A DNA stretch of 64,000 nucleotides, from assembly GCA_964016885.1 (NCBI GenBank), contig OZ024743.1:27528001-27592000 (forward strand), read 5' to 3'. The stretch is from Eledone cirrhosa. Taxonomy: Eukaryota. The position numbers were made by a program, and so were the translations under genes. Below are positions 23,582-25,556 of this stretch, piece by piece (position 1 is the first letter of the stretch; each line of letters begins with the position of its first letter). The notes beneath the pieces are model-generated. The model made no database searches. It was not told the DNA's origin and was given only the letters and a program-made list of their open reading frames with translations.

Positions 23582-23722
23582 ACACACACACACATACACA
23601 CACACACACACACACACACACACACACACACACACACACACACACACACACACACACACACACACACACACACATATATATATATATATATATATATATA
23701 TATATATATATATATATATATA
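23582..23722. repeat. (CA)n(TA)n microsatellite
   Basis: Seen directly. Confidence 0.98.
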
Positions 23723-25556
23723 TGAAAGACGTAAAATAAGAAAATTTTAAAATTTTAAAATTAACTTACTTACTAAAATGTTCACTCCAACTAATTAGTT
23801 TCTGTAATGGGATACATATAGTTACATAATATATATAACTATAGAGAATTCATTACGTCATCAGGGAGTCTATTCTCAGCTAAGTTCCCAGGCAATGCGC
23901 GGACACTAGGAACCCATATAAAAATGATAATTCAGTAGATGGAAAGAAGCTAGCGTGGACTAAATTCCGGAGCACTGAAAAAATTTCACTGCCTCTGGTC
24001 AGTGGCAAATTCTAAAGAATCAATCACGTGACACCGAGGTTAATCAGTTAGGAGCGGGGTGGTATTATGACAAGAGCCTACTACTACCATGAAACAGCAG
24101 TAAATTTTGGCCAGTTTTGCTCAACAAATAATTTGGAGATAAATATAGAGAATTAGTGCATCTACCAACATATGTGTAGAGATGTACACTCAAGCTAGCA
24201 AATATATAAGTTATGTCTTAGTACCTATGTGGTTCTATGCAGGTGAATGCAGAACAATTATATGAAAGACGTAAAATAAGAAAATTTTAAAAATTAAAAA
24301 TTAACTTACTTACTAAAATTTTCACTCCAACTAATTAGTTTCTGTAATGGGATAAATATAGTTACATAATATATATAACTATAGCCAATTCATTACGTCA
24401 TCAGGGAGTCTATTCTCAGCTAAGTTCCCAGGCAATGCGCGGACACTAGGAACCCATATAAAAATAATAATTCAGTAGATGGAAAGAAGCTAGCGTAGAC
24501 TAAATTCTGGAGCACTGAAAAAATTTCACTGCCTCTGGTCAGTGGCAAATTCTAAAGAATCAATCACGTGACACCGAGGTTAATCAGTTAGGAGCGGGGT
24601 GGTATTATGACAAGAGCCTACTACTACCATGAAACAGCAGTAAATTTTGGCCAGTTTTGGTCAACAAATAATTTGGAGATAAATATAGAGAATTAGTACA
24701 TCTACCAACATATGTGTACAGATGTACACTCATGCTAGCAAATATATAAGTTATGTCTTAGTACCTATGTGGTTCTATGCAGGTGAATCCAGAACAATTA
24801 TATGAAAGACGTAAAATAAGAAAATTTTAAAAATTAAAAATTAACTTATTTACTAAAATGTTCACTCCAACTAATTAGTTTCTGTAATGGGATAAATATA
24901 GTTACATAATATATATAACTATAGACAATTCATTACGTCATCAGGGAGTCTATTCTCAGCTAAGTTCCCAGGCAATGCGCGGACACTAGGAACCCATATA
25001 AAAATAATAATTCAGTAGATGGAAAGAAGCTAGCGTAGACTAAATTCTGGAGCACTGAAAAAATTTCACTGCCTCTGGTCAGTGGCAAATTCTAAAGAAT
25101 CAATCACGTGACACCGAGGTTAATCAGTTAGGAGCGGGGTGGTATTATGACAAGAGCCTACTACTACCATGAAACAGCAGTAAATTTTGGCCAGTTTTGG
25201 TCAACAAATAATTTGGAGATAAATATAGAGAATTAGTACATCTACCAACATATGTGTACAGATGTACACTCATGCTAGCAAATATATAAGTTATGTCTTA
25301 GTACCTATGTGGTTCTATGCAGGTGAATCCAGAACAATTATATGAAAGACGTAAAATAAGAAAATTTTAAAAATTAAAAATTAACTTATTTACTAAAATG
25401 TTCACTCCAACTAATTAGTTTCTGTAATGGGATAAATATAGTTACATAATATATATAACTATAGAGAATTCATTACGTCATCTGGGATTCTATTCTCAGC
25501 TAAGTTCCCAGGCAATGCGCGGACACTAGGAACCCATATAAAAATAATAATTCAGT
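23721..25556 (-). repeat. 540-bp tandem array (about 3.4 units), one HHR per unit (pLTR/retrozyme concatemer)
   Basis: tatgaaagacgtaaaataag starts at 23721, 24261, 24801 and 25341; units differ by only a few substitutions. Confidence 0.93.
23784..23869 (-). ncRNA. Type I hammerhead ribozyme with extended stem II (also 24324-24409 and 24864-24949; mutated at 25404-25489)
   Basis: Minus strand: actcc CUGAUGA cgtaatg..atagttatata/tatgtaactat..cattaca GAAAC taatta GUU ggagt. Confidence 0.8.

Follow-up and report, generated by a model that had tools for sequence, protein, structure and literature searches.

Animal non-LTR retrozymes are described as tandem arrays of a non-coding unit in which each copy carries one type I hammerhead, with a low GC content, a structured circular fold and a tendency to co-occur with PLEs (PMC7229834; bioRxiv 10.64898/2026.07.22.740005), and the Eledone cirrhosa array analysed here resembles them in all of these respects. 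A PLE origin and PLE-driven mobilisation have already been proposed for these retrozymes in the same two reports. The more recent of them, a 2026 preprint, requires a complete type I hammerhead in two or more successive units, and the published unit sizes of 51–972 bp that it gives include the 540 bp found here (bioRxiv 10.64898/2026.07.22.740005). The invertebrates named in its text are three insects and one anthozoan. The literature on octopus and cephalopod Penelope elements, hammerheads and retrozymes, with subscription papers mostly outside the scope of the search, yielded no study of a cephalopod retrozyme among the papers listed; a squid genome paper counts 235 Rfam hammerheads and goes no further than the count.

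A second point of comparison is provided by the 3′ ends of Hydra-clade PLEs, which share with the array a targeting of (TA)n, an ACU...AGU stem III (PMC8557442 section 11, File S2), a stem II whose basal pair is mismatched (mostly as U·U) and a hammerhead placed near the 3′ end, but have a short stem II and are attached to an ORF. Two individual hammerheads also bear likenesses: in PLE-X1_cBra, C and A flank stem II as they do in the 540-bp unit, and in PLE-X1_sMoe stem II is 9 bp long and carries a 34-nt loop (PMC8557442 File S2). Both, however, belong to green-lineage PLEs that lack the endonuclease, not to tandem non-coding arrays.

The window (the whole 64,000-nucleotide stretch of DNA that was analysed) is AT-rich and dense in (TA)n and (CA)n tracts. 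A sequence-only reading of it had described about 3.4 units of 540 bp, an extent that self-comparison of the window bears out (Table 1). The copies are 97.2–99.4% identical to copy 2, their identity ends abruptly past 25556, and no further copies of the unit occur elsewhere in the 64-kb window. The circularised monomer contains 11–16 stops per frame in all six frames and therefore has no coding capacity; the same stops reject an endless ORF running round the circle (540 nt being 180 codons). Comparison of the unit with PLE proteins gave no match. Three consecutive units carry a complete type I hammerhead, as the preprint's definition asks, and by its sequence criteria the array is an animal non-LTR retrozyme. 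It differs from those described in the two reports in its cephalopod host and in being joined to PLE pieces; the unit is longer than the 170–400 nt of invertebrate retrozymes, and its stem II domain measures 53 nt rather than about 4 bp.

Table 1 Features of the hammerhead array, the adjoining PLE pieces and their flanks (window coordinates).
Feature	Position	Strand	Basis
Putative left-arm target, a (CA)n(TA)n microsatellite	23582..23723	.	array 3′ end runs into the tract
Tandem array, 3.4 × 540-bp non-coding unit (retrozyme-like)	23721..25556	-	window self-comparison
Type I hammerhead copy 1, intact core; predicted cleavage 23789/23788	23784..23869	-	
Stem II domain of hammerhead copy 1	23803..23857	-	
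Copy 2 of the type I hammerhead, core intact	24324..24409	-	
Copy 3 of the type I hammerhead, core intact	24864..24949	-	
Copy 4 of the hammerhead, with decay at 25483 (U4 to A) and in stem I (25488)	25404..25489	-	
Exact one-period duplication: 24386-24925 identical to 24926-25465	24386..25465	.	permutation P 3.5e-4
Internal piece of RT from a PLE with a C-terminal endonuclease (Neptune/Nematis grade)	25557..27156	+	protein comparison
5′-truncated second PLE, Nematis-like	27157..28777	+	GIY-YIG domain PF01541
(TA)n tract bordering the composite on the right	28778..28839	.	

One hammerhead is found per unit, in the same phase throughout, and consists of stem I (ACUCC/GGAGU), a CUGAUGA box, a GAAA box, stem III ACUAAUUAGU and a GUU triplet. 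The 53 nt between the C and A that flank its stem II domain form a 6-bp GUAAUG/CAUUAC helix, a 7 × 7 internal loop and a 12-bp AU-rich hairpin. In all four copies C·A precedes the G-C pair at the base of stem II, where G10.1-C11.1 would be expected at the core. The type I features (CUGANGA and GAAA boxes, an NUH triplet and three helices with helix I open) are present, and three of the four copies are intact. The minus-strand motif with its roughly 53-nt stem II domain, C·A, palindromic stem III and GUU, which had been read from the letters before, thus recurs in each unit, and the copy on the junction side does carry the CAGAUGA box and the stem I change reported for it (copy 4 in Table 1).

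We shuffled the segment 23775–24260 with its dinucleotides preserved, and none of 100,000 shuffles produced a motif of equal quality on either strand (16 did with looser stems), which places the hammerhead beyond chance. An Rfam search of the unit returned no hammerhead match, even at E 10, and a degenerate pattern for long-stem hammerheads had 0 matches in metagenome and viral contigs. Since a long stem II escapes Rfam, families of this kind may be undercounted. The motif in a second array of the window, with a 467-bp unit, matches Rfam Hammerhead_HH9 below its gathering score. Both C·A and a long stem II have precedents among PLE hammerheads (PMC8557442 File S2), and U·U at the base of stem II occurs naturally (PMC3088659, PMC7229834), for instance in an axolotl retrozyme (PMC7229834). 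A 6-nt segment directly 5′ of stem I is complementary to the stem II internal loop in copies 1 and 4, a pairing that was noticed post hoc and has a chance expectation of about 1.2%. As hammerheads commonly form a pseudoknot that links their stems I and II (PMC3088659), this candidate 6-bp pairing may be a loop I/loop II docking contact.

The circularised monomer has a predicted folding z of −4.3 on the ribozyme strand versus −1.1 on the other strand (60 shuffles), and 62% of it is predicted to be paired. The signal comes partly from the ribozyme hairpin; outside the ribozyme it is uneven, with z values of −0.5 in copy 1 and −2.9 in copy 3. The lowest predicted fold of the monomer pairs the core with stem III and lies 2.5 kcal/mol below the active fold, and stem III is predicted to form a 10-bp homoduplex at −9.0 kcal/mol. 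As the best monomer fold hides the core and stem III can homodimerise, the modelling suggests silent circles and active multimers, and fits the dimer activation known for hammerheads (PMC4209133, PMC7229834). Eight of nine predicted elements in the 2026 preprint showed no cleavage in vitro (bioRxiv 10.64898/2026.07.22.740005).

A comparison of the array with itself at a lag of 540 finds 20 mismatches over 1,296 positions, all of them within 756 positions and none over a single 540-bp run. Because this run is free of mismatches, one period must have been duplicated recently or by the assembler, and the exact stretch is a recent duplication or an assembly expansion. Once it is removed, 2.4 copies are left; three copies overlap over 216 bp, and their private changes number 4, 3 and 3, with none shared. 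From this star-like pattern it follows that the copies were identical at insertion and have drifted by about 1.5% each since then. The pattern fits an RT that ran more than twice round one circle, or the copying of a uniform multimer; it would also be expected from an uncleaved multimeric transcript. Judged from the same copies, C·A is ancestral and CAGAUGA a later decay.

Neighbouring 540-bp copies are 2.6% apart, versus 0 differences over 6,826 lagged positions (1,987 + 4,839) in the 467-bp array, which makes the 540-bp array the older of the two. The sequence-only reading had both arrays arise by one process, this one slightly earlier; for a process of one kind that view is supported both by the divergence and by a 3′ end in (TA)n placed back-to-back with a second arm. 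The units themselves are not related in sequence in either orientation (P 0.64 and 0.41); GTACATC/GATGTAC hairpin arms can be seen by eye in both. The 467-bp array (39987–47746) comprises two back-to-back arms with zero lagged mismatches; at their 3′ ends the cleavage site is followed by 300 and 232 nt, a tail-like difference of 68 nt. A search of sequencing runs recovered the 540-bp unit or part of it in 13 of the 16 rows listed (9 studies), with shares of 0.56–0.60 in three rows from one sample, which may be the source, 0.25–0.29 in two and small values, left out of account, in eight; none of the matches listed is an RNA run carrying the unit.

The junction of the array with an RT at 25556/25557 is real in this sequence. 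The RT fragment matches residues ~100–634 of the O. vulgaris protein P0001 at 63–76%, contains one stop and four indels, lacks its own 5′ and 3′ ends, and is 70% identical at the nucleotide level to 38812–39748 of the window. The best protein relatives of the window's PLEs come from Octopus vulgaris (67%) and O. bimaculoides (54%), relations that make an octopus host probable. The fragment had been labelled Naiad-like, an assignment that does not survive comparison with the Naiad criteria (PMC8557442 section 6). Naiad PLEs have an N-terminal GIY-YIG, CxC, DKA and no canonical hammerheads, whereas the fragment and its family alignment A1 read TDKSG (DKS, not DKA) and in the family a C-x4-CxxC linker leads into a GIY-YIG at the C-terminus. 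In the relative near 38 kb the endonuclease follows the RT, at 38115–38420; the CX2-5CxxC linker before the C-terminal GIY-YIG is present both there and in the A1 consensus, and the C-terminus of the family profile aligns with the GIY-YIG end of the second PLE with a probability of 98.5. By its motifs and the domain order of its family the RT is a C-terminal-endonuclease PLE of Neptune/Nematis grade, not a Naiad element. Naiad PLEs nevertheless share with the present elements a (TA)n preference, inverted 5′ arms and a long spacer between RT motifs A and B. About 130 residues separate these motifs in the fragment's family (26209–26680 in the window, alignment A1), far more than in the canonical PLEs of PMC8557442 Fig. 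S1, and the family is possibly a distinct subgroup.

The second PLE joins the RT fragment at 27156/27157, just before YVDD. Its frame is open from YVDD to the GIY-YIG (to 28080) and is followed by a 3′ UTR ending in (TA)n at 28777; it carries a linker related to the Neptune/Nematis Zn-finger linker. A hammerhead-like remnant, with a GGAUGUGAAUCC hairpin and GAAAUAUAUA, lies in the 3′ UTR at 28480–28516 and lacks a complete CUGANGA box. No further pieces of either element are present in the window except the 70% relative. That the unit is a pLTR of the second PLE, a possibility for which the sequence-only reading had suggested a test, would entail identity with that element's own 3′ end, and this identity is absent: the best local score is 31 against a shuffle mean of 24 (P 0.047, one of ten comparisons), and there is no blastn match. 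None of five 3′ ends compared from the window is significantly similar to the unit, and those of the two Hydra-clade elements share no sequence similarity with it.

The composite of array, RT fragment and second PLE (23721–28777) has both 3′ ends facing outward, into (TA)n. The same arrangement is seen in three other two-armed insertions, 33643–37046, 37519–39934 and the 467-bp array, and it corresponds to a published PLE pattern (PMC8557442 section 6). A purified PLE has been reported to nick and extend both strands at AT-rich DNA, starting inside the RNA (PMC11167929). No target-site duplication is readable within (TA)n. In 33643–37046 and 37519–39934 the element's own 3′ end supplies the inverted arm; in the composite that arm is foreign to the second PLE. 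The distance from the cleavage site to (TA)n is 65 nt in the 540-bp array, 28 and 57 in the window's Hydra-clade elements, 267 in the Neptune-like element and 268 in the second PLE. As the 65-nt distance is nearest to the Hydra-clade elements, it points weakly to a Hydra-clade partner or origin of the array.

Other elements crowd the window. A Hydra-clade-like PLE in a state of decay occupies 33643–37046. It has an inverted 3′ arm, its ends are 57 and 121 nt beyond the cleavage site, the stem II domain of its hammerhead (at 36940) measures 26 nt, and tandem repeats of about 490 bp lie at 35641–36778. The relative of the RT fragment at 37519–39934 (minus strand) is a Neptune-like PLE with a C-terminal GIY-YIG, an inverted 3′ piece with an internal deletion and a short hammerhead near 37790–37826; a second copy of its 3′ end lies at 63741–64000. 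A nearly whole Hydra-clade-like PLE on the minus strand (47775–50748) shares (TA)n with the 467-bp array and carries, 28 nt from its end, a hammerhead with a CAGAAGA core and U·U at the base of stem II; the sequence 47766–48660 recurs at 8103–8969. Just left of the 540-bp array, 19773–23423 holds an intact 1,216-codon non-LTR RT frame with an (AAT)n end, which may be R4/Dong-like, to judge by its C-terminal motif. Long inverted repeats lie at 30593–30954 and 61957–62310, the first being Hydra-clade-like 3′ end sequence.

Taken together, these features make an animal non-LTR retrozyme, non-autonomous and dependent on a PLE enzyme for its insertion, the probable identity of the 540-bp unit. In the course of events that we propose, a genomic array would be transcribed, its multimers would self-cleave, probably as dimers via the palindromic stem III, and the resulting 540-nt monomers would circularise. 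A PLE RT/GIY-YIG protein would then nick the (TA)n tract, and reverse transcription would run from about 65 nt past the cleavage site over at least 2.4 units. After insertion the copies diverged in the star-like manner described, at about 1.5% per copy; the core of copy 4 decayed, and the exact one-period duplication, if not the assembler's, came afterwards. The insertion would be two-ended, with the array as its left arm and with RNA of the second PLE as the template on which the right arm was primed; the right arm would have taken up the decayed RT fragment through template switching.

Whether array and PLEs entered in one such two-ended event is, in our judgement, evenly balanced. Clean junctions and missing flanks favour a single event with template switching. 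The RT fragment has four indels in 1,600 bp, versus none in the ~2,200 bp of array and second-PLE frame (post hoc P 0.03), and because of these extra indels it looks older than its neighbours, which counts against the one-event step; changes at conserved sites do not separate the ages of the two PLEs (8/117 vs 2/46, P 0.73). Under a two-ended insertion the mobiliser is more likely to be the second PLE or a Hydra-clade PLE than the RT at 25557, which is a weak candidate because it is a decayed internal fragment and because the 3′ end of the right arm belongs to the second PLE. Of the earlier proposal that the array is linked to a candidate mobilising PLE, the physical junction therefore stands and the role given to this RT is weakened; the link between array and PLE rests on one locus. 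A nested insertion into the RT element was rejected, as no continuation of that element flanks the composite.

The alternative that survives best, a serious contender that falls somewhat short of probable, concerns the two-ended step only: the junction would be incidental, the array and the second PLE having entered (TA)n tracts in separate events next to an RT relic that predates them, and each having undergone a deletion at its 5′ junction. The apparent age of the RT fragment and the crowding of the window with (TA)n-targeted elements fit this course, but both internal junctions are without (TA)n or spacer, no further piece of the RT element lies on either side, and two deletions are required. 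Less easily reconciled with the data, and in our view unlikely, is a unit that represents a tandem pLTR of the RT fragment's own family, present as the usual inverted, 5′-truncated arm. Two insertions in the window do have their own 3′ end as inverted arm, and Xenopus retrozymes match pLTRs, 24 of 57 families there matching 22 TEs, 21 of them PLEs (bioRxiv 10.64898/2026.07.22.740005). Against it, the unit contains no coding remnant, and the relative with 70% identity, whose short hammerhead lies 267 nt from the end, does not resemble the unit; among 13 related loci, two have a 3′-UTR hammerhead, both with a short stem II (16 and 12 nt). All of these relatives are distant ones.

A local satellite, in which one hammerhead-bearing fragment multiplied at the site through DNA recombination without passing through RNA, is quite unlikely. 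The exact one-period duplication did arise at the DNA level or in assembly, and unequal crossover has been proposed for such arrays (bioRxiv 10.64898/2026.07.22.740005); stepwise duplication, however, does not predict three equidistant older copies, and the 3′ end of the array falls in (TA)n, with a spacing from the ribozyme like that in PLEs. That the motif is no ribozyme, as the missing Rfam match and the C·A could imply, is very improbable given the shuffle result and the identical CUGAUGAC...AGAA core given for PLE-X1_cBra (PMC8557442 File S2).

A more far-reaching reading, a single two-ended PLE integration with priming on a retrozyme circle at one nick and on an autonomous PLE RNA at the other, together with a working ribozyme variant that docks a 5′ strand in the internal loop of the 53-nt stem II domain, is doubtful as a whole. 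If true, the single two-ended integration would be a direct footprint of trans-mobilisation. So far, co-occurrence and pLTR similarity are the grounds on which a mobilising enzyme is assigned to animal retrozymes; arrays that end in the PLE manner, and chimeric insertions that include PLE arms, would identify both the partner and the start site. The gain from one locus is modest, and the octopus offers many loci of this array/PLE-arm kind to count.
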